DNA from: a virus
Length of the DNA: 64,000 nt
Reading direction: 5' to 3' (one strand)
IMG/VR virus record: IMGVR_UViG_3300045988_119396
The notes under the pieces are model-generated. The model was not told the DNA's origin. It saw nothing but the letters and a program-made list of their open reading frames with translations, and did not search any database. Made by a program: the position numbers and the translations under genes. Each line of letters starts with the position of its first letter. Position 1 is the first letter of the stretch. This document shows, one piece after another, positions 196-55,987 of the stretch.

Positions 196-213
196 AAGTC
201 TAGAGAAGAACTG

Positions 214-269
214 AGGGTAGGTTAGTACATAGAAAAAATTCTATCAAGGTGCAAATCCTTGCTATCCTA
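214..269 (+). ncRNA. tRNA-like minihelix: 7-bp acceptor-like stem (AGGGTAG/CTATCCT), internal hairpin, T-arm CAAGG-TGCAAAT-CCTTG
   Basis: T-loop-like GGTGCAAATCC; intergenic. Followed by palindrome CACTAGAttttTCTAGTG (273-290) and AAAAAATAAA before an RBS. Confidence 0.3.
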
Positions 270-319
270 TATCACTAGATTTTTCTAGTGAAAAAATAAA
301 CATTGTGGAGGTAGTCAAA

Positions 320-565
320 ATGATAGACTATATGGAATTATCACTAGATGAAAGAAGAAACTTATACAATGAATGGTGTAAAAATAAAAATAGATTGCTA
401 TTCATGGATGAGTTCGCATACCGTGATTTTAAAAAAGAATTAGACAACGACAACGATGTGTGGGTTATATTTTGTGACGGTTTAGTGCTTGAAATAGTGC
501 CAATGGATAAACTAGATGAAACACTAGAGGATTTAGTGGAATGTGGATATGAATTAGAGGACTAA
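320..565 (+). CDS. hypothetical small acidic protein
   Basis: ATG at 320 lies 6 nt after GGAGGT; track ORF 305..565. Confidence 0.5.
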   Translation: MIDYMELSLDERRNLYNEWCKNKNRLLFMDEFAYRDFKKELDNDNDVWVIFCDGLVLEIVPMDKLDETLEDLVECGYELED

Positions 566-591
566 AAATAAATTTTAGGAGGTACATTACT

Positions 592-858
592 ATGTACGAT
601 AACAAAATAATTTTAGAGGCTACAATTTCATATACAGTTGATAGTGACCATCCAGACTGGCAATACATGAATGAAAAACAACAAAACGGTATAAATAAAT
701 TTAGTGATGATTACTATTTTGACAAGAATTACTATTCAATCAGTGATAAAGATTACATGATTGAACATGCTAAACATGATTTACTGTTGGTTGCTGGTGG
801 TGGATACAATTACGACCACGTACACAATGCAAAATTTAAATTCAAGTTTTATGATTAA
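592..858 (+). CDS. hypothetical protein
   Basis: RBS AGGAGGT upstream; track ORF. Confidence 0.45.
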   Translation: MYDNKIILEATISYTVDSDHPDWQYMNEKQQNGINKFSDDYYFDKNYYSISDKDYMIEHAKHDLLLVAGGGYNYDHVHNAKFKFKFYD

Positions 859-918
859 AAGAATTTTTAGGTAGTAATTTCAGTCAAGAAAAGAATTTAA
901 AGAATAGAGGTAATTAAA

Positions 919-1302
919 ATGAATGCACAAAAAGAAAAATTATATCTATCAAAGCCAGTATATGAAGTAAGAGTACGTTATAAAGGCGGTGGATGGTTTA
1001 GTGGTGATGAATTTAAAAGTGAAAGTTTAGATATAGCAAAAAAGACAGGGCTTGAAAATTATACACGTTGTGGAGCTTGTAACGGTGGATACCTTAAAAT
1101 AGAAAAAATTCAATATATCAACGGTTTAAAATCACTACCAATAAAAGAATTATTAGAATTTGTTGGTAGTGAAAAAGAATTTTTACTCAACAATAAAGTA
1201 ACTATTGAGGAGTATAAAGAAAAATTAGTAGATGACAATAGATTTAGCTACAGGGTAGCACCATCTTTTATAGAAATTGAAAAGAAACATACAAAAAAAT
1301 AA
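919..1302 (+). CDS. hypothetical protein
   Basis: RBS AGAGGTAAT; track ORF. Confidence 0.5.
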   Translation: MNAQKEKLYLSKPVYEVRVRYKGGGWFSGDEFKSESLDIAKKTGLENYTRCGACNGGYLKIEKIQYINGLKSLPIKELLEFVGSEKEFLLNNKVTIEEYKEKLVDDNRFSYRVAPSFIEIEKKHTKK

Positions 1303-1321
1303 ATTTAGTGAGGTAAATATA

Positions 1322-1594
1322 ATGAATAAAAAGAATTTAGCAAAAAAATATTTAATGGATAACGTTGTAATTGACCTTGATTATATTGATGAAATTAAAT
1401 CACAACCTAGAGAACAAATTATATACATGGGTGGGGTCAAACACTGGTATATCAAAACAAAAACTAATTATGAAATTTTACAGAATGCAATCAACTATGC
1501 AAACTATAAAAATAAAATTAGTGATAGAAACTGGCGAACTGTAATTGCATTGTGGCAAGAAGTAGTTTATAGCAAATTAGAAAAGTTAGTGTAA
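1322..1594 (+). CDS. hypothetical protein
   Basis: ATG after GTGAGGTAAAT; inner start of track ORF 1277..1594. Confidence 0.45.
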   Translation: MNKKNLAKKYLMDNVVIDLDYIDEIKSQPREQIIYMGGVKHWYIKTKTNYEILQNAINYANYKNKISDRNWRTVIALWQEVVYSKLEKLV

Positions 1595-1621
1595 AAAAGA
1601 ATTTTTTAGGAGGACTTTATC

Positions 1622-1828
1622 ATGAAAAATAAAATTGAATATGTAGGGTTTACTTATGATATAGATAACATTGATGTTGAATTTATCGTTAATGGTATAA
1701 AAAAGAATTTATACATTAGTGGTAAAGGTGTAGAAGAAATTTTAGACTTTATGGATTATCAAGAAAACGAAGATGTAGATATGATATTAGACAGTTATTT
1801 TGAAACATATAAGCAAGAAATATTTTAA
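1622..1828 (+). CDS. hypothetical protein
   Basis: RBS AGGAGGA; track ORF. Confidence 0.45.
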   Translation: MKNKIEYVGFTYDIDNIDVEFIVNGIKKNLYISGKGVEEILDFMDYQENEDVDMILDSYFETYKQEIF

Positions 1829-1860
1829 CAAAAAAGAATTAATCAAGGGTGGTAATTGGG

Positions 1861-2073
1861 ATGAAAGTAACTTTAAAAAGAAATAATAGCTATGTAGCAA
1901 ACTATGAAGATATGTATTTTAGAGATTGCAAAGTGTTGGTATATAACACTTTATACGACAATATAGACAGTATGGAGGGTGCGAACGAAGAATTAAATTC
2001 AATTAGAAGTTGGGTTGACTTGGTAGACTTTGCAAACTCTCACGGTGGCAAAATGTTTATTGATGAAGATTAA
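1861..2073 (+). CDS. hypothetical protein
   Basis: ATG after GGGTGGTAATTGGG. Confidence 0.45.
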   Translation: MKVTLKRNNSYVANYEDMYFRDCKVLVYNTLYDNIDSMEGANEELNSIRSWVDLVDFANSHGGKMFIDED

Positions 2074-2107
2074 GCTAGAAAAGAATTTTTAAAGGTGGTA
2101 ATTAATC

Positions 2108-2494
2108 ATGAAAAAAATTAACGGTTTAAAAGTAGCTAATGTAATAACAATAATAGGTGTAGTTTGCTTAGGTGTATCTAATCATGAATACATTAAACAA
2201 AATAAGCAACTGAAAAAAGAAAATTTACACCAAGAAAAAGTAATTAAAAAGCAACGTCAAGAATTGACTTATAACGTCAAGAATTTAGACTTGCAAAGTG
2301 GCAGCATACTCAAAACAAGTAAATTTACGCTTGAATACTATGATGATAATAAAAAAGATTTTCACATGGTTATCTATCCTAACGATAAGAATTTAAGAGT
2401 AGTTAGTGAACAAGGTCAAGGTGCAAAGGGTGTAGAAATTGAAAGTGTACCTAGTGAATTTAAAGGCACTACTACAATAATTCAAGAAAAATAA
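2108..2494 (+). CDS. hypothetical protein with N-terminal hydrophobic segment
   Basis: RBS AAGGTGGTAATTAATC; TM-like residues 10-25. Confidence 0.5.
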   Translation: MKKINGLKVANVITIIGVVCLGVSNHEYIKQNKQLKKENLHQEKVIKKQRQELTYNVKNLDLQSGSILKTSKFTLEYYDDNKKDFHMVIYPNDKNLRVVSEQGQGAKGVEIESVPSEFKGTTTIIQEK

Positions 2495-2503
2495 ATTTTA
2501 GTG

Positions 2504-2563
2504 TTGACAAGGAAAAATAAAGAAGTTATAATTCAGTTGTCAAGTTAAGAGTACAGAGAATAA
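2504..2563 (+). promoter_or_regulatory. sigma-A-type promoter (TTGACA-17-TATAAT) with TTGACAA/TTGTCAA inverted repeat, followed by conserved leader GTTAAGAGTACAGAGAATAA
   Basis: -35 at 2504-2509; -10 at 2527-2532; IR at 2504-2510 and 2537-2543; leader motif at 2544-2563 (copy 1 of 6). Confidence 0.6.
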
Positions 2564-2605
2564 CTTGATAGCAAAAAATAAAATAATTTGAAAGAGGTAA
2601 TTATT

Positions 2606-3250
2606 ATGACAAACGAAGAAATTTTTGAAATTATGGGTGATGTGGTTAATGAATGGGGTTTATATATCGAAGATATAAATATATATACCAATGACCTAGA
2701 GGCTACTATTGTAGGTCAATATGATAGTAGAATTTACTACACTTACAACGATATAGATGAATTAGAAGGTAAGTCAGAAAAAGAAATTTTTGCAAGTTTA
2801 GAAAGTCAACTTATGGAAACACTAGAAGATTTTGATGCCGAAGAAGAGTTTGAAAACCTAGACATGAATGACGTAAGCATTTTAGAAAACATGAAACTTG
2901 ACGAAAAAGATTTTAAAGAAACCGTGTGGATGTATGAACAGAAACAGAAAGGTAAAGAAGTGTCAAGTTTTGAAATAGCTTTGACACATGAATTGCAAAA
3001 ACTAGGTCAATTAATGAATGATGAAGTTTATCCTGGTATGGTAGCTAGTTACGCTGTGGATATTTCAAGAGTTAGATGGTCAAATGAAATTTATGAGTAC
3101 ATGAAAGAAAAAAATATTGATATGACAAATGTAGATTATTATGACGTTAATTTCTTTAGCATTGTAAAAAGAGATAGTTTAATAACTGAGTTGTGGACTC
3201 AAGGCAAGAAAGATGAGGCAGTAAAACAATTTCAAAAACACGTATTTTAA
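2606..3250 (+). CDS. hypothetical acidic protein
   Basis: ATG after AGAGGTAATTATT. Confidence 0.5.
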   Translation: MTNEEIFEIMGDVVNEWGLYIEDINIYTNDLEATIVGQYDSRIYYTYNDIDELEGKSEKEIFASLESQLMETLEDFDAEEEFENLDMNDVSILENMKLDEKDFKETVWMYEQKQKGKEVSSFEIALTHELQKLGQLMNDEVYPGMVASYAVDISRVRWSNEIYEYMKEKNIDMTNVDYYDVNFFSIVKRDSLITELWTQGKKDEAVKQFQKHVF

Positions 3251-3288
3251 AGAAATATATATATTTAGAGTCTAGAGAAGAAATAAAA

Positions 3289-3346
3289 AAGGTATCTAGT
3301 CGGTAGAAAGTTTACAACTTGTAAGGTTCGAATCCTTACTACCTTA
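3289..3346 (+). ncRNA. tRNA-like minihelix: acceptor-like stem, AAGTTtacAACTT hairpin, T-arm TAAGG-TTCGAAT-CCTTA
   Basis: Canonical T-loop GGTTCGAATCC. Preceded by TCTAGAGAAGAA as in element 214-269. Followed by palindrome ATCCTAATTAGGAT and AGAAAAATAATTTT. Confidence 0.3.
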
Positions 3347-3395
3347 TATATCCTAATTAGGATAGAAAAATAATTTTATATAGGAGGTATCTATC

Positions 3396-4022
3396 ATGAA
3401 AAAGTTTATAGATACAAACAAAAAAGAATTTTTAGTAAGTGAGAATTTATATCACGTTGACAACTACATTGATGAGTTGAAAAGCAATGGTATTCATGTA
3501 GTAAGTAATGTAGATATTCTTGATTATACAGAGGCTTTAGAAGATATTACTGAGGCTTTTCTTGATATAGTTGATGATTTAGAAGAAGGAAATAATTATT
3601 TCAGACTACCAACTCAAGAAGAATTAATACAAAAGTGGGTAGATAGTGGGTGGAAAGATTTAAACGAGCCATTCGACAAAGAGTTAGCAACTAGCTTTTA
3701 TTATAGTGATTGCATACGTGACGCTTTGAGTGAAGAGCCTTGCGAGTTTCTAAGTTGGTTAGATAGTGAAAGTAGATTTTTCACTTATGAAACAGTAAGT
3801 GAAGGTATGGATTTCTATGACTTAATAGAATATCATCCACTAACCAATGTAGAAAGCGATATGTTGCTAACTTATGATGATGAATTAAGAAAAAATTTAT
3901 TTGATGATTGGTTTTTTGTAGAAGATAAAGAAGGCAACCAAGAAGAATTTAGCTTAGAAAGTTTTCAATCATTAAACATGTATATGTTAAAAAACTACAA
4001 TGCGTTAGAAGTAACTAAGTAA
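3396..4022 (+). CDS. hypothetical acidic protein
   Basis: RBS TAGGAGGT; track ORF. Confidence 0.5.
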   Translation: MKKFIDTNKKEFLVSENLYHVDNYIDELKSNGIHVVSNVDILDYTEALEDITEAFLDIVDDLEEGNNYFRLPTQEELIQKWVDSGWKDLNEPFDKELATSFYYSDCIRDALSEEPCEFLSWLDSESRFFTYETVSEGMDFYDLIEYHPLTNVESDMLLTYDDELRKNLFDDWFFVEDKEGNQEEFSLESFQSLNMYMLKNYNALEVTK

Positions 4023-4084
4023 AGAAAATTTTCTAAGAATTTCAGTAACAAAAAATAATTCAAATTAAAAGGGTGGTAATCAAT

Positions 4085-4282
4085 ATGTACGGACAAGAAT
4101 TTTACGGTGGTTTATTTATGATGAGTTTTGTTGCCTTGGTAATAATTTTGATGGGTAGCTATCATGCTGTTTGTTGGTTGTATAAAAGAAAAAGATTTAT
4201 TTTCAAGCTAATGTTATTCATACCATATACAATTTTGACTTTATTGTTGGTTGGTATCAAAGCATTAAACAATAGAATATAA
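4085..4282 (+). CDS. small membrane protein
   Basis: ATG after GGGTGGTAATCAAT; two hydrophobic helices. Confidence 0.45.
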   Translation: MYGQEFYGGLFMMSFVALVIILMGSYHAVCWLYKRKRFIFKLMLFIPYTILTLLLVGIKALNNRI

Positions 4283-4311
4283 AAAAATAATTATTAAAGG
4301 TGGTAATCAAA

Positions 4312-5139
4312 ATGACAAAAGAATTAGTAGAAACAGTAGTAGTAAAAGTAAATGCAAAAGATTTAGTTAGAAGTTATAAAGAAATTTTAGTACATGTTCA
4401 AAAGAAAGACTTTAGACCAATACTAGCAACAGTTAATCATGTAGTAGAAAACAATAAATTAACTTTAGTTGCTACTGATACACATTCACTAGGCAAGTTC
4501 ACTTTAGATTGTGAAAGTGACAGTGATGTTGAGTTTGCAGTACCTAGAAAAGTAATTCAAGCATTATCTAAGCTAAAAAATAAAGAATTAGTTAATGAAG
4601 AAATTATCCTTGAATTTTCTGATGACAAAATCAATTACATTGTGAATGGTAAGGAATTTATTAGCTCAATGACAGAAAGTAATTATCCAAGTGTTGAAAG
4701 AATTTTACCAGTAGTAAACGAAGATAGAAATATTACGTTCAATATTCGTGAATTAAAAGAATTTATCAAACATATTAAAGAAACTGGCTACCACAGAAAA
4801 GAGTGGAGCAATAAAACAATTCAATCAAATATTAAATTCATCAAAGGTCAATTCGTATTTAGTTATGAATACGAAGATGAAGAAGGTAAGGTATTCTACA
4901 AAAAAGAAAATATTAATTGCAATGTAACTAAGGGGTTCACTGATGATTATGATATTAATCTCAATATCTATGAATTAGAAAGACATGTAAATAAATTCTT
5001 AGTTGGTAACAAAACAATTACATTAGCTTTTGTTGAAAAAGAATTTATGAATAGTCAAAACGTAAGACCAATTCAAGTAACATACAACGGTATGAATAAT
5101 TACATTGGTGTGTTAGCACCAATGCGAGCATTTAAATAG
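4312..5139 (+). CDS. DNA polymerase sliding clamp (beta-clamp-like)
   Basis: N-terminal RPILATVNHVV-TLVATDTHSL and NYPSVERILP resemble DnaN motifs. Start placed at the inner ATG (4312) after RBS GGTGGTAATCAAA. Confidence 0.5.
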   Translation: MTKELVETVVVKVNAKDLVRSYKEILVHVQKKDFRPILATVNHVVENNKLTLVATDTHSLGKFTLDCESDSDVEFAVPRKVIQALSKLKNKELVNEEIILEFSDDKINYIVNGKEFISSMTESNYPSVERILPVVNEDRNITFNIRELKEFIKHIKETGYHRKEWSNKTIQSNIKFIKGQFVFSYEYEDEEGKVFYKKENINCNVTKGFTDDYDINLNIYELERHVNKFLVGNKTITLAFVEKEFMNSQNVRPIQVTYNGMNNYIGVLAPMRAFK

Positions 5140-5211
5140 TAGAAAAATAAAAGAAAAATTAGTTAGAAAATCAATAACAAAAATAATTTAAAAATTAAAG
5201 GGTGGTTAATT

Positions 5212-5601
5212 ATGATGGAAAATAACTTATTTGTAGCACCAATGTTAGGCTGTGGCACTTTAGACTTAAATATCTTTTTTGAAAAATTAGACAATTACGA
5301 AGATACAGTGTTTTTGCATGATGAAGAATTTTCATATCAAAAATTAATAGAAGAAACAAAATTTAGGGCTGGTGATGACTGGAGTTTTAATGACCTAATG
5401 GAAACTTTAGACTACATGGCTGTTGATAGTGCATTAGGTCAAGTAACAAAATCAGAAAAATTTAATGAGTTTGATGACCTAGTACGTGAAAGTATAAACG
5501 GTTGGTATAACTACGCAGATAATAATTTATATTTTGACAATGAAGAAGAATTAGAAAAATTTGATGAATGGAAAGAATTTTCAGAATTATTAGATTTATA
5601 A
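5212..5601 (+). CDS. hypothetical acidic protein
   Basis: RBS GGGTGGTTAATT. Confidence 0.45.
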   Translation: MMENNLFVAPMLGCGTLDLNIFFEKLDNYEDTVFLHDEEFSYQKLIEETKFRAGDDWSFNDLMETLDYMAVDSALGQVTKSEKFNEFDDLVRESINGWYNYADNNLYFDNEEELEKFDEWKEFSELLDL

Positions 5602-5614
5602 AGGGTGGTTAATT

Positions 5615-5854
5615 ATGAAAGTAAGAAATTTTAAAGAATTAAATAATGAATATCCAATGGTTGAGGAATTGGTAGTGTATAAACCAACTTTTAGGAAACG
5701 TGTTGATATTGTTGTAAATCAAGAAATAACTTTAGCTTTAGCAAGTAATATTGTTGCTTATGTAATACCAAGAAGTCTAAACAATAGAGTGAGAAAAGTT
5801 TGGGATATGGATTATATAGACAATCAGACAATCATTACAGTTGATTATGAATAA
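5615..5854 (+). CDS. hypothetical protein
   Basis: RBS GGGTGGTTAATT. Confidence 0.4.
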   Translation: MKVRNFKELNNEYPMVEELVVYKPTFRKRVDIVVNQEITLALASNIVAYVIPRSLNNRVRKVWDMDYIDNQTIITVDYE

Positions 5855-5883
5855 AGATTAAGAATTAAAAGGTGGTAATTGAA

Positions 5884-6123
5884 ATGAAAGAAAGAAAATT
5901 TAATGTGTACGTGAAAAATAGATTAGTGGGTCAAATAACATATGACAACTGGGTTTACTTTGATGATTATCGTACCAATGAATATGAAATTGATCTAGAT
6001 ATAAAAGATTTAGATGAGGCAATGGAAACTTTAATAGACTACTACATTAAAGATATACCTTGCAATTATGAAGATGTTGGTTTTGTTGAGTTAGTTAATA
6101 AAGAAAATTTAGTTGAAATTTAG
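5884..6123 (+). CDS. hypothetical protein
   Basis: ATG after GGTGGTAATTGAA. Confidence 0.4.
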   Translation: MKERKFNVYVKNRLVGQITYDNWVYFDDYRTNEYEIDLDIKDLDEAMETLIDYYIKDIPCNYEDVGFVELVNKENLVEI

Positions 6124-6170
6124 TGTTCGGATAAAATAACGATTTTATAAACGTTATAAACGTTGTTATG

Positions 6171-6238
6171 TAGGGTAATTGGTATAATACAATAAAATAA
6201 TTTATTGCATTTTAAGGTTCGATTCCTTTTTATCCTAT
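6171..6238 (+). ncRNA. tRNA-like element: 7-bp acceptor-like stem (TAGGGTA/TATCCTA), CAATAAAataaTTTATTG hairpin, T-arm AAGG-TTCGATT-CCTT. Overlaps a TGGTATAAT -10-like box
   Basis: Third member of the T-arm element family. Followed by palindrome AGTTTGAAacacaTTCAAACT and AGAAAAATAATTTTAGGAG. Confidence 0.3.
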
Positions 6239-6287
6239 CAGTTTGAAACACAATTCAAACTAGAAAAATAATTTTAGGAGTGATTAT

Positions 6288-6884
6288 ATGCAAGCTATAC
6301 GATATGGTGAAGCCTTGAATTATCTGTTTGAGTTTTGCTTGTCTACTGGTAAAGAATTTCCGAAAGACTGGCGAAGGATAGACAATAGATTTTTCAATGG
6401 CATAAAGGATAACAAATTGAAAGATGAAGTGAAGATGTGTGTTGAGGTTATAAGCAACCATTCAATTAATAAGAATGGAAAAATTATACCTAAATCAAAA
6501 CGTGAAAGAAAAATTAATAGAGTGTTTAGACTGCAAAAAATAATCGAGCATGATATTAACTTTCATTACGGTAGACATACAAAAAGTATTTTAGAAAGAG
6601 AAGGATTACGTTTGAGCAACATGTACTCGGCATTAGGTAATCATGATGATTATATATCACAAAGAGAAAACGGTAAAAGAATTTTCTTGATTGATAGAGA
6701 AATGATTATCCACAAAACATATGATGATGTACACGTTGCTAGTAAAGAATACGGTGTCCAACCTTACAATGTTTACGATTGGTGCAATCGAGGTGCTTAT
6801 CGTTTTGATGGAAAAAGAATGATTAAAGCACATGTGTACAGTAATCTAGTTTGCAAAAATAAAGAATTTCATTATCAATTTTAG
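6288..6884 (+). CDS. putative DNA-binding or homing-endonuclease-like protein
   Basis: C-terminal VASKEYGVQPYNVYDWCNRGAYRFDGKRM resembles the HTH tail found at the C-terminus of phage homing endonucleases. Confidence 0.4.
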   Translation: MQAIRYGEALNYLFEFCLSTGKEFPKDWRRIDNRFFNGIKDNKLKDEVKMCVEVISNHSINKNGKIIPKSKRERKINRVFRLQKIIEHDINFHYGRHTKSILEREGLRLSNMYSALGNHDDYISQRENGKRIFLIDREMIIHKTYDDVHVASKEYGVQPYNVYDWCNRGAYRFDGKRMIKAHVYSNLVCKNKEFHYQF

Positions 6885-10276: not shown

Positions 10277-10304
10277 TTGACAGTAGTTAAAAATGTGGTA
10301 GAAT
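10277..10304 (+). promoter_or_regulatory. promoter TTGACA-16-TGgTAGAAT
   Basis: -35 at 10277-82; extended -10 at 10296-10304; upstream of the 10350 gene. Confidence 0.55.
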
Positions 10305-10349
10305 TACGTTATAAAGTTAAAAGTTAAAAGAATAAAGGGGTGATACAGT

Positions 10350-13135: not shown

Positions 13136-13197
13136 TTGACTTATAATTATTGTATGTTATAATATAATAGTTGAGTTAAGAGTTTAGAGAATAAATG
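13136..13197 (+). promoter_or_regulatory. promoter TTGACT-16-TATAAT plus conserved leader GTTAAGAGTTTAGAGAATAAATG (copy 2)
   Basis: -35 at 13136-41; -10 at 13158-63; leader at 13175-13195; ATG start of the next gene at 13195. Confidence 0.65.
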
Positions 13198-20805: not shown

Positions 20806-20865
20806 TTGACTTAATATGTATATATGTTATAATATAATAGTTAAGTTAAGAGTTTAGAGAATAAA
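20806..20865 (+). promoter_or_regulatory. promoter TTGACT-16-TATAAT plus conserved leader GTTAAGAGTTTAGAGAATAAA (copy 3)
   Basis: -35 at 20806-11; -10 at 20828-33; leader at 20845-65. Confidence 0.65.
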
Positions 20866-29199: not shown

Positions 29200-29258
29200 T
29201 TGACTTTTATTTTCTATGTGGTATCATAATATATGTAGTTAAGAGTTAAGAGAATAAA
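29200..29258 (+). promoter_or_regulatory. promoter TTGACT plus TATCATAAT -10, with conserved leader GTTAAGAGTTAAGAGAATAAA (copy 4, left flank of the tnpB island)
   Basis: -35 at 29200-05; -10 about 29222-30; leader at 29238-58. Confidence 0.6.
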
Positions 29259-30311: not shown

Positions 30312-31481
30312 GTGAGTAAGATGTTAAAAGGTATTAAATTACGTATATACCCAAATAAGAGACAACGTGAACAGTTGGATATTATGTTTGGTAATAGTCG
30401 TTTTATTTGGAATAATATGTTAGCTACGATGAACGAGCGTTACAAGAATAACAAAGATTTACCTATGTTAACCGAGTATAAATTACATGTTCTACTAAAA
30501 CCTTTGAAAGTTGAATATCCATTCTTGAAAGAGAGTGATAGCACTGCTTTACAAGTAGATTGTCAAAATCTGTATCGAGCGTGGAAGAACTTCTTTAAAT
30601 CTGGTTTTGGTAAGCCTAGATTCAAGTCTAGGAAATTCTACAAGCAATCTTATACAGGTAAGTCGGCACCTAATGTTCATGTAGTAGCTAAAAGATATAT
30701 GAAACTACCTAAGCTAGGCTATATCAAAACTAGCAAAACATTTCAACTCACCGATTGCAAGATTAAACGTTATACGTTAAGTCATGGCACGACTGGTCGT
30801 TATTATTTATCTTTACAGGTAGAATGTGAAAATCAAGCATTGTTACCTAAGACAAATAAATCAGTTGGGTTAGATTTAGGTGTAGCAGATTTAGCTATTT
30901 CTTCTGATGGAATTAAATATGATACATTCCATGTGGGAGATTTAGAACATAAAGCTAACTTGTGGCAACGTAAGTTTTCTAAGCGTAGACATCAAGCTAA
31001 GGTTTGTATCGAAAGTGATAAATACTCAAAAGTATTAGTGCCTAGAGATTTTGATGATTTTAAAAATCTACAAAAGGCTCGAAAGCGCAAAGCGAGATTG
31101 CAAGCTAAGATAGCTAACAAACGTAAAGATTACTTGCATAAATTAACCACTACGTTAGTAAAGCAATACGATACTATCGTTATTGAAGATTTAAAGGCTA
31201 AGAATATGATGAAAAATCATAAACTAGCAAAAGCAATAGCTAACGGTTCATGGTATTTATTCCGTTCTATGTTGGAATATAAGTGTAATTGGTATGGGAA
31301 GCAACTAATAGTAGTTAGTCCTAAATACACTTCACAAGTCTGTTCTAACTGTGGTGTAAATACAGGCAAGAAATCGTTAGATGTTCGTGAGTGGACTTGT
31401 GATAATTGTGGTACACATCACGATAGAGATATTAACGCTGCTAGAAATATCTTGGCTAAAGGATTGAAAGAAGTAGCTTAA
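30312..31481 (+). CDS. tnpB: TnpB (OMEGA RuvC-like RNA-guided nuclease, IS200/IS605 OrfB)
   Basis: RuvC-I GLDLGV, RuvC-II IVIEDL, zinc finger CSNCG...CDNCG, Ruv[14 protein letters not shown]. Confidence 0.85.
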
Positions 31482-31764: not shown

Positions 31765-31787
31765 GTTAAGAGTTTAGAGAATAAATG
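31765..31787 (+). promoter_or_regulatory. conserved leader GTTAAGAGTTTAGAGAATAAATG (copy 5, right flank of the tnpB island; no consensus promoter upstream)
   Basis: Identical to the leaders at 13175 and 20845. Confidence 0.5.
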
Positions 31788-31969: not shown

Positions 31970-32042
31970 GTCATGTGGTGTATATGTGTAGCACACTCGT
32001 CCTTAACACGAGAGAAGTAGGGTTCAACTCTCTACCATGACA
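31970..32042 (+). ncRNA. tRNA-like (73 nt) with anticodon loop CCTTAAC (anticodon UUA, would read UAA) and degenerate D-arm; possible suppressor-tRNA relic
   Basis: Acceptor 6/7 bp; anticodon stem CTCGT/ACGAG at canonical positions 27-31 and 39-43; T-arm TAGGG-TTCAACT-CTCTA. No GG in the D-loop; C at position 33. Confidence 0.25.
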
Positions 32043-32160: not shown

Positions 32161-32212
32161 TACCGCAGATGTTAAAAGGTGCATTTTACGAGTTCGACTC
32201 TCGATGTGGTAA
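32161..32212 (+). ncRNA. tRNA-like minihelix (acceptor, hairpin, T-arm CGAG-TTCGACT-CTCG)
   Basis: 7-bp acceptor-like stem TACCGCA/TGTGGTA with one G-U. Confidence 0.2.
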
Positions 32213-32363
32213 TTGGGGTAGAGCATGAATGCCCCGAAGCACAATAACGGTAAGTGCGTAGATTTACGTATTTTGCGTGACATTAAAAAGTTAATTCATG
32301 AACAGGTTCATTACGACTTACGTGGTTGGTTCATGAATAAGATTTCCTCCTTTTAAAAAGGTA

Positions 32364-32425
32364 TACGGTGTAGCTCAAATGGTAGAGCAAGGAGGCTGAT
32401 ATGGGTTCGAGTCCCATCACCGTAA
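32364..32425 (+). ncRNA. tRNA-like RNA lacking an anticodon arm
   Basis: Perfect 7-bp acceptor TACGGTG/CACCGTA; canonical D-arm GCTCaaatggtaGAGC; T-arm ATGGG-TTCGAGT-CCCAT. Only 12 nt (AAGGAGGCTGAT) where the anticodon arm should be. Confidence 0.35.
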
Positions 32426-33088
32426 TTTTGTTCTTTGACAATCGTATACTTTACTATTCAAACAGCAATTCAAGCATAACCAGTTGTATAAGGGGTCTAA
32501 TCAACCCTTGCTGGATATGTACCTGTAATTCGTAGTAGATGTAGTCTGAGTGATAGCTTAGACAAGTCGTGAGATGGTTAGTAATATCTATTGAACCTAG
32601 TAAAAGCTAGGACGTAGGGTACGTATGTGGATACATGTGACGTTAGTGTTTCACTGGCTGTTGGCATTAGATAATAGACGCTTACAGTGTGAGAATAACC
32701 CATTGACAGCTTAGTGTGGCAACTAAGTGTTGCGTTGGGAATGCCAAGAATAATGTTTGCCTTGACGCTTAGGAAACTAAGCTATAACAACAGAGGTGAG
32801 AACAAGTAGGGTAATGGCAATATATACAGTTAACTTGTGCATTACAAACGACAGATAAGAGATAATTTTGTAAATATTCTGAATGATAACCTGAAAGTTG
32901 GGATTTACCATAATCGCCACATTTTTAAAAAGCAAAAGGAAGTGATGAGGTAGCTCTTTGTCACTCAGACCTTTTGAGATGTTCACATAATAAACGGTAG
33001 CATGTTGAAGCAGAGTGAAAGCTCATGTTTGAATTGCTATTTGAGTAGTGAAGCATATGATATATCAAAGAACATATAACTATATTTA

Positions 33089-33507: not shown

Positions 33508-33597
33508 GGTAAGTTACTCAAGTTGGTGAAGAGGACAGTTTGCTAAACTGTTAGGTCTGCGATTGTAGACGCAAGGGTTCGAGTCCCTTACTTACCT
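33508..33597 (+). tRNA. tRNA-Ser(GCU), class II with long variable arm
   Basis: Acceptor GGTAAGT/ACTTACC; D-arm CTC-aagttggtgaa-GAG; anticodon stem ACAGT/ACTGT with loop TTGCTAA; variable arm GTCT...AGAC; T-arm AAGGG-TTCGAGT-CCCTT. Confidence 0.65.
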
Positions 33598-41403: not shown

Positions 41404-41712
41404 TTAATTAAGAATTCTATTCCATTCTATTTCAGTGTACACACGAACCATCTTACGAACCTTGTAGGGTTGCTCATATTCATATGAGTTAGTAGATTGA
41501 TTATATGTTCCTGTAATATCAAAAGCATAGCCATAATCTTGATTGGCAAAATTAGGGACGACAATGATTTCATAATCATTATCTTCTATGCTAGAGATTA
41601 ACGGGCTGTTATCCAGTTCACCGTCATAATAAGCATTTACAATGTATTGCTTATCTGAACTGTTTAGCTCTTTTCCTTTATGCAACTTATTAAATATCTT
41701 CTCTAAACTCAT
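41404..41712 (-). CDS. hypothetical protein
   Basis: Track ORF. Confidence 0.4.
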   Translation of the reverse strand: MSLEKIFNKLHKGKELNSSDKQYIVNAYYDGELDNSPLISSIEDNDYEIIVVPNFANQDYGYAFDITGTYNQSTNSYEYEQPYKVRKMVRVYTEIEWNRILN

Positions 41713-44408: not shown

Positions 44409-44621
44409 GTTTTGTTAAAAAATTCTCGGCACGTATTTAACGGTAGTGCCTATGTCCCATCACGCTCTCAAAAACGTGTGAACTCTCAAATCATGGTTAT
44501 GGGACGGTGTGTTTTTAAGTGACGTAACTTTTAAAACCATGCCTTGTTTTATTAGTTTTCGCAAAGAACAGCTAACTTTGCAACGACCTATCAATCTTTT
44601 ACAATTAATAGACCCAGTGCG

Positions 44622-45145: not shown

Positions 45146-45206
45146 CATTTATTCTCTAAACTTTTAATTACATTTATTATAATATCACACCAAAATAAAA
45201 AGTCAA
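45146..45206 (-). promoter_or_regulatory. promoter TTGACT-N17-TATTATAAT plus leader AAAAGTTTAGAGAATAAATGG (copy 6, minus strand)
   Basis: Reverse complement of 45146-45206 matches the + strand modules. Confidence 0.6.
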
Positions 45207-53897: not shown

Positions 53898-54809
53898 CTA
53901 ATTATTATAGTGGGACTTAGTTAATTCTAAGTCAGCTCGCTGTAATGTTGTCCATGCTCCATACTGAAATTTAGCTTGAGGGAAAGCTAAAAATAGTCTT
54001 CTTCTTAGAATGTTCATGAAAGTCGCACCTTTATAAGACTTGTTGACTTTCTTTTTATCCTTACACCATTTAGCTAAAATTCCAGTTTGGTGATTTTTAG
54101 TTGTGTGGCAATTAGAACATACTGTAATTAGATTATTTACAGTGTTAGTTCCACCTAAAGAACGGTAGATAATATGGTGGATTTTGAGTTTACCACCTTT
54201 TTTCTTACATACTTGACAAGTATAGTTATCTCTAGCTAAAACAAATTGTTTAACAGTTTGATAGCCGTATAAATCACCTTGCTGATAACCCTCACCATTT
54301 ATTTCTGGATTTTTCATTTTTTGAATATCAAACTTACCTACTTCGATATGTAAATCAGCTTTAGGTAAGACTGATAATAAACGCTTTATCCAGTTGATAT
54401 TATGGTTAACTTTACTTAATACCGAAGGCGGTAGCCAGTTATCTTTTTTCTTAGCTATACGATTTAAAAATTTAGCTTTACGATAACGTGTTTTACGGTT
54501 ACGTCTACTTCTACGATATATTCTTCTAGTATCTATTAGCTTTTTGACATCTTGTCTTAACTCTACTTCGCCTTGAAATAAGACTTTATCTTGGCTTGTA
54601 ACAGCTAGTCCAATATGTCTTTGACCGCTATCAATACCAATACTTATATCCTGTTTATAACCAGTTGAACCATATAAGAGCTGAATGGTAAAAGGTTCTT
54701 TTTTAAGTACCTTAGCTTTACCATCTCTTAACAAAATTCTAGCTTTTCTAGGCTTACATGGCATTAACGCTTTACCATGTTTGTTAATCACAAAAACTCG
54801 GTTTTGCAT
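53898..54809 (-). CDS. iscB: IscB-like OMEGA nuclease (PLMP, RuvC-I, Arg-rich bridge helix, RuvC-II, HNH); terminates inside the expected RuvC-III motif
   Basis: ALMPCKPRKARILL; GIDSGQRHIGLAV; RRSRRNRKTRYRKAKFLNR; IHIEVGKFD; HNH CQVCKKKGGKLKIHHI...CSNCH; ends ...LELTKSHYNN*. Start taken at the second Met (54809), after GGAG. Confidence 0.65.
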   Translation of the reverse strand: MQNRVFVINKHGKALMPCKPRKARILLRDGKAKVLKKEPFTIQLLYGSTGYKQDISIGIDSGQRHIGLAVTSQDKVLFQGEVELRQDVKKLIDTRRIYRRSRRNRKTRYRKAKFLNRIAKKKDNWLPPSVLSKVNHNINWIKRLLSVLPKADLHIEVGKFDIQKMKNPEINGEGYQQGDLYGYQTVKQFVLARDNYTCQVCKKKGGKLKIHHIIYRSLGGTNTVNNLITVCSNCHTTKNHQTGILAKWCKDKKKVNKSYKGATFMNILRRRLFLAFPQAKFQYGAWTTLQRADLELTKSHYNN

Positions 54810-55045
54810 AATTTGTACTCCTTTCATTTTTTATAAGGTACTAACGACCTTATCACGTATTTATCAGAGTTAATAAATACATGTAGTTACCCTTCGACAA
54901 TGTTATTTCAGCTTATAAACAAGGTTGACTAGCACATTAACCTTATGCTTGTTTACAGAGCCTCCATAGTGCTAGAAACTAGGGTATCATTTCTAGGTAT
55001 GTTCACTGAAATAACGTAGTTCTCTAAGAACTTAGTCTAGACAAC
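54810..55045 (-). ncRNA. candidate IscB omega-RNA / structured 5' leader
   Basis: About 235-nt ORF-free region directly upstream of iscB. Minus-strand hairpins CTAGAAAtgataccctagTTTCTAG, CTAAGttCTTAG, ATAAGGTcgttagtACCTTAT. Confidence 0.3.
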
Positions 55046-55075
55046 AAAATTATTAAGTTACCTACTTTAGTAGGT
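55036..55075 (-). terminator. rho-independent terminator (minus strand) ACCTACtaaaGTAGGT plus T-rich tail
   Basis: Follows the stop of the 55078..55575 gene. Confidence 0.45.
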
Positions 55076-55077
55076 GG

Positions 55078-55575
55078 TTACTGTTGACCCTTCTTAGTCA
55101 TTTCTTCCAAAGCGTCTTGCCACTTATATTCCACATCTTCCTTGATAATAGGGTTAGTTTTCTTCGTCAGACCAACAACCTTAACCCTAAAGTCATGAAC
55201 ACGAGGAACTACAATCTCAACAGGAATACCATATTGCTTAGCAAACATCTTAAATCTTAATTGTGCTGCTGGGTCAATATTGTATGTTGAGTTAAACCCT
55301 GTCTTGACGTCATAAACATGCAGCAAGTTACCATCTTCATCTCTTATCACAACATCTGGTGTGTAATTAGCACTTCTCAAACGCAGACCATTGTGTAATT
55401 CCACCATAGGTTGTATTGTAAAAGACTCGTGTACGGTAGCATTTAAATCTCTACCATAAATAAATCGCTCATAAAACTTAGCTTCTTTTTCAGAGTCAAA
55501 TTTCAGACCATTAAATTCAACTTTCTTACCAAAGTAAGTTGTTCTACCTCTATTAATTCTAGTTTTGCACCTCAC
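55078..55575 (-). CDS. DUF1064-like phage protein (putative nuclease)
   Basis: KFDSEKEAKFYERF...PDVVIRDEDGNLLHVYDVKT pattern, from recalled family features. Confidence 0.4.
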   Translation of the reverse strand: MRCKTRINRGRTTYFGKKVEFNGLKFDSEKEAKFYERFIYGRDLNATVHESFTIQPMVELHNGLRLRSANYTPDVVIRDEDGNLLHVYDVKTGFNSTYNIDPAAQLRFKMFAKQYGIPVEIVVPRVHDFRVKVVGLTKKTNPIIKEDVEYKWQDALEEMTKKGQQ

Positions 55576-55670: not shown

Positions 55671-55712
55671 AAAAAAACCTCGCAGCAGAAAGCTACGAGG
55701 TCAAAAAGGTTT
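55671..55712. terminator. bidirectional terminator A7-CCTCG...CGAGG-TCAAAAAGGTTT
   Basis: Hairpin flanked by an A-run and a T-run. Confidence 0.55.
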
Positions 55713-55732
55713 ACAGTGTGTTATAATGTATT

Positions 55733-55987
55733 GTGGCGAAAGTTATAAAGACGGTGGCTGACTTATTAGAAAGTGTGGTGTTGCCTATGCAATGCGAAAC
55801 TAACGAAAGGAAAGCCATTTGTGTCTGTCTATCAAGCCTTGATGTTGATGTTAACATTCGGTGTGTTTCTGTTAGCATTACTGACATACATCAGCAAAAA
55901 GTAAGCAACTTTGTTGTGACGATAGTAGATACAGTAAAACCGTCCGATTGTAACTTTGGCGAGTTCGTGGACGGTTGCTGTATGTGA
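55733..55987 (+). CDS. small Cys-rich ORF inside a promoter-to-terminator unit; may be non-coding
   Basis: TGtTATAAT at 55719-27 lies only 5 nt before the GTG start. Terminator CATGCttcgGCATG plus TTTTT at 56031-56060. Confidence 0.25.
   Translation: MAKVIKTVADLLESVVLPMQCETNERKAICVCLSSLDVDVNIRCVSVSITDIHQQKVSNFVVTIVDTVKPSDCNFGEFVDGCCM

Follow-up and report, generated by a model that had tools for sequence, protein, structure and literature searches.

The window analysed here is a stretch of 64,000 nucleotides from the IMG/VR virus record IMGVR_UViG_3300045988_119396, and our subject is three short tRNA-like elements on its + strand (el1, el2 and el3; Table 1), which lie between early genes. 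Each comprises a 7-bp acceptor-like stem around a short hairpin and a 5-bp stem closed by a 7-nt loop with T-loop sequence. The T-loop pattern GGTKCRAWTCC occurs four times in the 64 kb, compared with 0.06 occurrences expected, a count that none of 100 shuffles reached, and three of the four occurrences are el1, el2 and el3. A first-pass annotation, made from the letters alone, had reported three T-arm elements here, and both our reading of the sequence and a covariance model agree with it, except that el3 spans 6172-6237 and not 6171-6238; the T-loops it listed are all present, with those of el1 (GGTGCAAATCC) and el2 (GGTTCGAATCC) given in swapped order.

In el1 the acceptor stem is AGGGTAG/CTATCCT with one G.U pair, the segment in place of a D-arm is unpaired, and the inner hairpin ATAGAA-AAAA-TTCTAT is followed by the T-arm CAAGG-TGCAAAT-CCTTG and the discriminator A269. 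El2 combines an acceptor AAGGTA/TACCTT with a D-like hairpin TCTA-GTCGG-TAGA, an inner hairpin with a loop of 3-5 nt, a T-arm TAAGG-TTCGAAT-CCTTA and the discriminator A3346. El3 has the acceptor AGGGTAA/TTATCCT, a D-like region with TGGTATAAT, a 7-bp inner hairpin CAATAAA-ATAA-TTTATTG, a 5-nt variable-loop-like spacer, the T-arm (T)AAGG-TTCGATT-CCTT(T) and the discriminator A6237. The minimum free energy (MFE) folds of el1 and el2 are identical to these tRNA-like drawings, and the composites of element and following hairpin have z-scores of -4.2 (el1), -1.9 (el2) and -2.5 (el3).

The replicon and its relatives

The window matches pMP1046B, a 129,218-bp circular plasmid of Ligilactobacillus salivarius JCM1046 (NZ_CP007648.1; our loci L048 and L065-L068), with 86.5% identity over 5.9 kb (PLSDB match). 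The pMP1046B replicon and two relatives are also included among the IMG/VR viral contigs. Near and distant DNA searches of GenBank phages yielded no close or useful match to the window, and the replicon is absent there; a protein scan of genome contigs for relatives gave no match. Public assemblies contain many close relatives of pMP1046B, with 40 index blocks matched by one protein. The plasmid encodes a tape-measure protein, a holin, XkdX, tail-fibre-like proteins, a CI-like helix-turn-helix (HTH) regulator and antirepressors, together with RepA/ParA and a phage-type replisome, and the window likewise encodes a phage-type replication set. The combination of tape-measure protein, holin and XkdX with RepA/ParA and the phage-type replication set identifies a phage-plasmid, and the window is therefore a member of the pMP1046B-like phage-plasmids of L. 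salivarius. Passages of the published description of pMP1046B (PMC4165912) call it a "candidate chromid" and list two tRNAs, and in these passages the tRNA-like elements are not mentioned; we reannotate the replicon as a phage-plasmid with a structured early regulon. Pfam and PHROGs assigned no function to the open reading frames (ORFs) 3' of the elements.

Conservation and covariation of the elements

A covariance model built from 13 copies was applied to the window and to the loci of 13 relatives (14 sources in all). It identified 45 copies (26 of them distinct), all on the + strand and each with E <= 1e-7; within the window it retrieved only el1-el3, and the real tRNAs scored just 14 bits. 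This family search in the rest of the genome and in relatives had been proposed in the first-pass annotation. The copies, three to five per genome, are intergenic wherever gene calls or annotation exist. The complete pMP1046B has exactly five, all of them intergenic in RefSeq and confined to ~6.6 kb within the first rightward operon block. This block begins beside a divergently transcribed HTH_3 regulator.

Standard pairs form in 93.8% of the cells of the alignment, compared with 37-57% in slid controls. Both-sided changes were found at 10 of 16 pairs, with none of 500 shuffles equalling the observed covariation score, and G.U pairs (e.g. 10 at pair 4-62) fit only an RNA of the + strand. For example, the acceptor stem occurs as AGGGTAG/CTATCCT, AGGGTAG/CTACCCT, AAGGTGG/CCACCTT or AAGGTAG/CTGCCTT, and the T-stem as CAAGG/CCTTG, TAAGG/CCTTA or CAAAG/CTTTG. 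The inner hairpin (ATAGAA..TTCTAT, GAAGT..ACTTT, CTTAC..GTAAG, AAGTTTT..AAAACTT) varies freely in stem length and sequence, as does the D region. Conservation of the T-loop in relatives had been set beforehand as a test of the elements, and it holds: U54, C56, R57 and U60 are present in 26 of 26 distinct copies, A58 and the pair G53-C61 in 25 of 26. The T-stem abuts the 3' strand of the acceptor with no nucleotide between them, the discriminator is always A or G, and the trailer is TAT (25 contexts) or TCA (6), never CCA. A sense-strand RNA structure is thus under selection in the relatives. Sequence conservation is much higher in el3 than in el1 and el2.

Covariation, together with the fixed architecture described below, also speaks against the elements being decaying tRNA pseudogenes or functionless remnants of a tRNA-derived attP-type site, which we consider very improbable, even though the window does contain a tRNA cluster with truncated tRNA-like pieces (32168-32213 and 32364-32425). 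The low score of the real tRNAs with the family model is a further argument against such an origin. A search of 185,579 species-representative genomes with the T-arm/acceptor pattern (a degenerate pattern matched exactly, with each species represented by one genome) gave no match in Ligilactobacillus, which indicates that the elements are not copies of the 3' end of a host tRNA and do not share its sequence in the way expected of a tRNA-derived attP. Nor are the copies identical among themselves; they diverge and covary. The only matches of that scan were one metagenome-assembled genome and a Pediococcus locus, whose two tRNA-like elements match those of the prophage locus L042.

The cassette between element and start codon

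In all 37 distinct contexts a hairpin of 6-8 bp starts at +3, i.e. 2 nt after the purine discriminator, and is followed by an A-rich stretch, a Shine-Dalgarno sequence (SD) at +31 to +39 and a start codon at +45 to +53. The stems of these hairpins are of at least seven sequence types (TCACTAGA, TCACTGTA, TCACTAAA, TCACTAAT, TCTACC, TATCCT and AGTTTGAA), which differ by fully compensatory changes: the stem after el1 is swapped in relatives for TCACTGTA/TACAGTGA, TCACTAAA/TTTAGTGA, TCACTAAT/ATTAGTGA or TCTACC/GGTAGA. These hairpins are the perfect palindromes to which the first-pass annotation had drawn attention, and they are real. Its motif TATCCTAT, in turn, dissolves as a separate entity: in el1 and el3 it consists of the acceptor's 3' strand and the discriminator, and after el2 it is part of the palindrome (TATCCTA); TATCCTA is not enriched in the window either (12 found, 11.3 expected). 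The box AGAAAAATAATTTT is exact after el2 and el3 only, and it is a general pre-SD spacer and not specific to the elements, since the A-rich/AATTT spacer also lies 5' of many element-free SDs in the 1-10 kb region (18 matches with <=2 mismatches, compared with 6.9 expected).

Table 1. Elements, cassette parts and box sites in the window (element boundaries from the covariance model)
Feature	Position	Strand	Remarks
Upstream box AAAGTCTAGAGAAGAA	195-210	+	3 nt before el1; 16-nt AGAGTYTAGAGAAKAA box family
tRNA-like element 1 (el1)	214-269	+	56 nt; covariance model 63.3 bits
Hairpin TCACTAGA-TTTT-TCTAGTGA	272-291	+	2 nt after el1 discriminator
A-rich spacer, SD, start	292-322	+	SD GGAGG 307-311; ATG 320-322 of 81-aa ORF
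Comparison module	2504-2571	+	perfect sigma-70 promoter TTGACA-17-TATAAT 2504-2532
Upstream box AGAGTCTAGAGAAGAA	3267-3282	+	6 nt before el2
tRNA-like element 2 (el2)	3289-3346	+	58 nt, compressed cloverleaf; covariance model 69.1 bits
Hairpin TATCCT-AATT-AGGATA	3349-3364	+	2 nt after el2 discriminator
A-rich spacer AGAAAAATAATTTT, SD, start	3364-3398	+	SD GGAGG 3383-3387; ATG 3396 of 208-aa ORF
tRNA-like element 3 (el3)	6172-6237	+	66 nt; covariance model 63.7 bits
Hairpin AGTTTGAA-ACACAA-TTCAAACT	6240-6261	+	2 nt after el3 discriminator
A-rich spacer AGAAAAATAATTTT, SD, start	6262-6290	+	SD AGGAG 6276-6280; ATG 6288 of 198-aa ORF
Box sites	2548-2563, 10300-10320, 13179-13194, 20849-20864, 29242-29257, 31769-31784	+	
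Box sites	45149-45164, 41696-41711	-	

Every hairpin precedes an A-run and not a U-run, and the stems are AT-rich. This leaves little of the proposal, raised in the first-pass annotation, that the elements are transcription attenuators or terminators between early-gene blocks: a stable hairpin does lie between the cistrons, but intrinsic terminators have a G+C-rich hairpin and a U-tract, the terminator scans of the window and of pMP1046B called no terminator-like site at the elements, the stems have only 6-8 bp, and no alternative anti-terminator pairing is conserved. We give this explanation almost no credence.

The constant distance from element to SD and start codon, with an unstructured A-rich spacer between them, would also suit an uncleaved structural insulator or translation enhancer, which shields the ribosome-binding site from upstream RNA or recruits ribosomes or protein S1, and the occurrence of the same spacer before many other SDs points in that direction. 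We nevertheless regard this explanation as quite unlikely, because a simple hairpin would be enough for such a role, which leaves U54, C56, A58, the 12-bp stack, the purine discriminator and the missing CCA unexplained, and because the fixed 2-nt offset of the hairpin would be pointless without a cut.

Taken together, element, hairpin, spacer and SD, with an optional upstream box, behave as a portable cassette for the 5' untranslated region (UTR). The relatives are mosaic 5' of window position 2079, yet the cassettes remain alignable. The same ORF may follow elements and hairpins of differing types in different genomes: the ORF starting with MYISTIDK is found after an el1 copy in L001 and after an el2x copy in L003, another, starting with MIDYMELS, is preceded by two different hairpins, and L003 contains two extra units of cassette plus ORF. 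Such mosaicism could be taken to mean that the elements act at the DNA level, as homology patches of ~60-100 bp or as site-specific or attC-like sites, at which recombination adds, removes and swaps small early gene cassettes, with their tRNA likeness as ancestral baggage; tyrosine recombinases are encoded nearby, and the promoter-early stem-loop (PeSL) cassettes of T4-type phages provide a precedent (PMC2839356). Recombination, however, needs neither compensatory changes nor one-strand G.U pairs nor invariant T-loop nucleotides, and el2 and el3 keep their places in all relatives (the 208-aa ORF always follows el2 and the 198-aa ORF always follows el3), so that we consider this explanation improbable. 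Cassettes are indeed shuffled between relatives together with small early ORFs, but more likely as a by-product of the repetition of functional cassettes.

Transcription context

In pMP1046B strong sigma-70 promoters are found at L048 positions 6564 and 9397, the elements lie at 6821, 7167, 7617, 10171 and 13306, and a scan of the + strand between 6100 and 14500 revealed no terminator-like site; the elements of pMP1046B are therefore located inside polycistronic units. As for the window, el2 lies ~750 nt 3' of the perfect promoter at 2504, neither el1 nor el2 has its own promoter or terminator, and the terminator scan called nothing at el1-el3. A look-up of contigs that encode the downstream ORF found none that starts or stops at an element. 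The idea of mRNA punctuation, which goes back to the first-pass annotation, is upheld as far as a selected sense-strand structure with the geometry of an RNase P/Z substrate inside terminator-free polycistronic units is concerned.

El3 may carry a second, DNA-level signal, as suggested by its higher sequence conservation, by a perfect extended -10 sequence TGGTATAAT (6180-6188) inside its D-like region, kept in all relatives, and by repeats next to it. These are two direct ATAAACGTT repeats, each with the palindrome AACGTT, just 5' of el3 (6145-6190), and they too are kept in all relatives. Judged by these sequences, a regulated internal promoter may overlap the tRNA mimic at el3.

Comparison with known RNA classes

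The elements are not tRNA genes. ARAGORN called no tRNA at el1-el3, nor at any copy in the three relatives' loci L001-L003, and its only calls in the window are tRNA-Sup(tta) at 31970-32042 and tRNA-Ser at 33508-33597. With the Rfam tRNA family RF00005, el3 scored 20.0 bits (E = 1.9, threshold 29), and el1 and el2 gave no match, in keeping with the first-pass view that they are not complete tRNAs. The canonical T-arm signature is present, with a 5-bp stem that stacks on the 7-bp acceptor stem; the loops of the inner hairpins have 3-5 nt, and the canonical 7-nt anticodon loop on a 5-bp stem is missing.

Another Rfam family with a related architecture is SpF41 (RF02435), a small RNA (sRNA) of Streptococcus, for which el1 scored 28.6 bits (E = 0.25, threshold 52) and el2 and el3 gave no match. 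In SpF41, too, an acceptor-like stem surrounds a hairpin together with a GGUUCGAAUCC T-arm, and a second hairpin comes next, but the 3' hairpin of its consensus is G+C-rich with a U-rich tail, whereas the phage-plasmid hairpin is AT-rich and accompanied by A-runs.

The closest known kind is the plant-mitochondrial t-element, or the mitochondrial principle of tRNA punctuation. T-elements were found by a screen for GGTTCRANYCC, their ends coincide with mapped 5' and 3' termini of mRNAs, and they are substrates of RNase P and RNase Z in vitro (PMC1920247). Like them, the elements studied here have a non-canonical tRNA-like fold with a conserved T-arm of the GGTTCRANYCC kind and an acceptor stem, lie in mRNA precursors beside coding regions and lack a functional anticodon loop, and their structure is kept by selection. 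Unlike t-elements, which belong to an organelle, they reside in a bacterial phage-plasmid, form one sequence family with three to five paralogues in a single early operon block, and are predicted substrates. Moreover, they are coupled through a fixed 2-nt junction to a hairpin, an A-rich spacer and an SD, an arrangement that passages of the t-element description (PMC1920247) do not include and that fits the RNase J world of Firmicutes.

Three phage systems offer further parallels. The early polycistronic mRNAs of T7 (sites R0.3-R1.3) and of the Bacillus phage SP82 contain RNase III sites in hairpins of ~20 bp. In these phages, as proposed here, intercistronic cuts by a host nuclease divide an early operon into defined stable mRNAs. 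The hairpins of our cassettes reach just 6-8 bp, and conservation centres on a tRNA mimic, a signal that points to RNase P/Z rather than RNase III. RNase P itself processes the precursor of the C4 antisense RNA of the phage-plasmids P1 and P7 and the M3 RNA of phi80. There too a phage transcript carries a tRNA-like acceptor/T-type structure for RNase P, as predicted for our elements, but that processing matures a regulatory small RNA, whereas the elements would divide operons of protein-coding genes and are linked to the 5' UTR of the following gene. Finally, the PeSLs of T4-type phages, motifs made of an early promoter and a terminator-like stem-loop (PMC2839356, PMC4122927), are also short conserved modules between small variable early ORFs that are gained, lost and exchanged there; the cassettes studied here differ from them in carrying a tRNA mimic and no promoter, with no sigma-70 promoter at el1 or el2. 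The promoter-plus-hairpin modules at 2504, 13136, 20806 and 29200 (see below) do resemble PeSLs. Searches of the full-text literature for tRNA-like punctuation of mRNAs in bacterial phages or plasmids found no published case.

A proposed processing model

Our preferred reading, which we regard as having about an even chance of being right, is that the elements are tRNA-like processing signals for host RNase P and RNase Z in early mRNA, each followed by a 5' hairpin that would shield the next message from RNase J. Their geometry is that of a minimal RNase P/RNase Z substrate, with coaxially stacked stems of 7 and 5 bp, a purine discriminator and no CCA. In a read-through transcript the 7-bp acceptor would stack on the 5-bp T-stem and display the canonical T-loop; host RNase P would cleave at the 5' end of the element and host RNase Z immediately after the purine discriminator. 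RNase Z cuts 3' of the discriminator in precursors without CCA; CCA blocks it and long 5' leaders impair it, so that RNase P acts first (PMC1874595, PMC8549757). The elements have no CCA after the discriminator, as required of an RNase Z substrate (PMC1874595), so that the enzyme would not be blocked. The tRNAs of the replicon are also encoded without CCA, hence the host route of RNase Z and CCA-adding enzyme must act on its transcripts.

The two cuts would part the upstream and downstream cistrons, leave the upstream mRNA with a 3'-OH and free a tRNA-like RNA of 55-66 nt. The new downstream mRNA would begin with UA or UC followed directly by the 6-8 bp hairpin, a putative roadblock for the 5'-monophosphate-dependent RNase J, and the A-rich unstructured spacer would keep the SD exposed. 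In Bacilli, RNase J1 degrades downstream fragments with a 5'-monophosphate and 5' roadblocks strongly stabilise them (PMC3997798). The cassette would thereby provide a defined, context-independent and stabilised 5' end for the next gene.

Several observations weigh against this model. The cleavages, the enzymes and the stabilising role of the hairpin, that is, every enzymatic step, are ones that we infer. In 10 of the 26 distinct copies, all of the el1 type, position 55 is G instead of U and there is no D-arm, so that the tRNA elbow used by RNase P and RNase Z may be imperfect. El3 has the weakest fold, with its 4-bp AAGG/CCTT T-stem absent from the MFE structure and a z-score of -0.85 for the core alone, and a transcript starting at its extended -10 would miss the 5' acceptor strand. 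The model assigns no role to the upstream box described below. Finally, the clamp protein of the replicon retrieves only close relatives (74-96% identical), which means that the covariation comes from few independent lineages and from paralogous copies.

The released RNAs could also be the point of the system. On this alternative the elements are genes for stable tRNA-like small RNAs, which are cut from the operon transcript by tRNA-processing enzymes and act in trans. They would be decoys or sponges that bind host factors recognising the acceptor/T-arm half of a tRNA, with the CCA-adding enzyme, RNase P/Z, EF-Tu, acceptor-targeting toxins and T-loop modification enzymes as possible targets. 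The several diverged paralogues per genome, the strict conservation of T-loop identity nucleotides and the fact that the nearest Rfam architecture is that of an sRNA, SpF41, are in line with it, as are other tRNA-like elements of 54 and 92 nt, neither tRNAs nor Rfam families, in (pro)phages of Lactobacillaceae, several of which precede a T-run hairpin in the manner of a small-RNA gene. We consider it unlikely all the same: el1 and el2 lack a dedicated promoter or terminator, the inner hairpin and D region vary freely, and the invariant 2-nt junction to a hairpin and then to an SD is a property of the downstream mRNA. A trans-acting RNA is, however, compatible with processing by RNase P and RNase Z and does not exclude it.

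A wider proposal, to which we give somewhat less than an even chance, is that a bacterial virus or plasmid uses organelle-style tRNA punctuation, with cassettes read by RNase P and RNase Z before selected immediate-early genes, mini-tRNA decoys and a box regulon. The cassettes would then be natural counterparts of synthetic ribozyme-plus-hairpin insulators. According to this proposal, the released mini-tRNAs, once tailed with CCA, may also serve as decoys for host tRNA-binding factors, and the box, which occurs after six sigma-70 promoters and before most el1-type and all el2-type copies, would define one early-expression regulon. In this replicon the hairpin start of a 5' UTR is reached in two ways, via a promoter or via a tRNA-like element.

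If the cleavage is confirmed, this would apparently be the first tRNA-like mRNA punctuation in a bacterial phage or plasmid, and it would reveal programmed mRNA targets of RNase P and RNase Z in Lactobacillales. Together, the processing site, the 2-nt junction and the hairpin would be a small natural device for segmenting operons and stabilising 5' ends in organisms with RNase J, possibly reusable as an insulator part in Gram-positive synthetic biology. The hypothesis can be tested in a culturable strain, L. salivarius JCM1046.

Upstream box and promoter-hairpin modules

The sequence TCTAGAGAAGAA, which the first-pass annotation had noted before two of the elements, is the 3' part of a 16-nt box AGAGTYTAGAGAAKAA with 10 matches in the window (0.74 expected). 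The box does precede el1 and el2, as noted, but it is distributed more widely. Across the relatives the box AGAGTCTAGAGAAKAA lies 2-7 nt 5' of most el1-type and all el2-type copies and never before el3. Five of the 10 matches in the window, and a more diverged copy at 10277, follow the -10 hexamers of strong sigma-70 promoters at a distance of 14-15 nt (promoters at 2504, 10277, 13136, 20806, 29200 and, on the - strand, 45206). At 2504, 13136, 20806 and 29200 the box is in the loop of a hairpin that starts approximately at the predicted transcription start; in the module at 2504 this is an 11-bp hairpin from 5 nt past the -10 hexamer, followed by an A-rich spacer and an SD. At 31769 the box likewise lies in a hairpin loop, ~200 nt 5' of the tRNA cluster and without a promoter. 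An extended form, (GTTA)AGAGTTTAGAGAATAA of 16-20 nt, reads as a tandem TTWAGAG heptad.

By inspection, the hexamers of the upstream box do not fit a sigma-70 promoter, and we rejected that assignment. Candidates for its function are an operator of the divergent HTH repressor, a nut/put-like leader signal and an RNA-protein site. For the first of these, the C1 operators of P1, which are scattered and asymmetric, provide a comparison.

Other RNA features

The suppressor tRNA at 31970-32042, identified by ARAGORN, has the anticodon UUA and would read UAA. In the 1-7 kb region the early genes use TAA as a normal stop codon (code 11), so that recoding, if there is any, would need to be restricted locally or to a stage of infection. 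A ROOL RNA (32456-33043, 245 bits) is flanked by two truncated tRNA-like pieces. The first (32168-32213) is a minihelix of ~46 nt with acceptor and T-arm; the second (32364-32425) is a 62-nt "tRNA" with a shortened anticodon arm, which Rfam scores at 48 bits and ARAGORN rejects. The family model gives them 14 bits, and neither is a member of our family.

A HEARO RNA (116 bits) is situated directly 5' of a 309-aa HNH-endonuclease ORF on the same strand (53898-55088, - strand), an arrangement like that of IscB and omega-RNA. A 389-aa ORF (30312-31481, + strand) matches transposase families of PHROGs, and relatives carry OrfB_IS605/TnpB at that place. From their sequences, genes of mobile RNA-guided nucleases appear to be scattered in the phage-plasmid and its relatives. 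Further matches are rli28 (67 bits, 55712-55891, + strand) and the salivarius-1 RNA (50.6 bits, 44452-44505, - strand).

Between 38100 and 38900 we found ~6-7 consecutive units of 105-125 nt, each with an extended -10 ATGTGGTATAATA, a GTTTCAGAAGAATGT segment and a terminator-like hairpin with a T-run (AGGCTATGC..GCATAGTCTTTTTAT). The array looks like a series of tiny transcription units, for sRNAs or micropeptides. The divergence of the units is too great for Tandem Repeats Finder, which does not list the array.

A pattern scan of IMG/VR and GTDB revealed other tRNA-like elements, in Pediococcus and in contigs that match only Lactiplantibacillus plantarum phages in GenBank. Elements of 54 nt occur at L037 2558-2611, L022 11697-11750 and L015 3931-3984, ~40 nt after a tRNA-Asn (L037, L022) or after an unclassified ARAGORN tRNA (L015). 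Elements of 92 and 55 nt occur at L042 3283-3373 and 3555-3609 and in L012, L035, L026 and others, as well as in L063 (Pediococcus stilesii). These elements have an A1-U72 acceptor and the same CAAGGTTCGATTCCTTG T-arm, and they either lack an anticodon arm or have a long hairpin inserted. None is called as a tRNA by ARAGORN, Rfam gave no match in the ten loci scanned, and the architecture of a hairpin at +3 followed by an SD was seen in none of those inspected. Some precede a conserved hairpin GTCACATAACTTAATTGTTGTGTGAC with a T-run. To judge by their sequences, they may represent a wider, undescribed superfamily of phage mini-tRNA-like RNAs.

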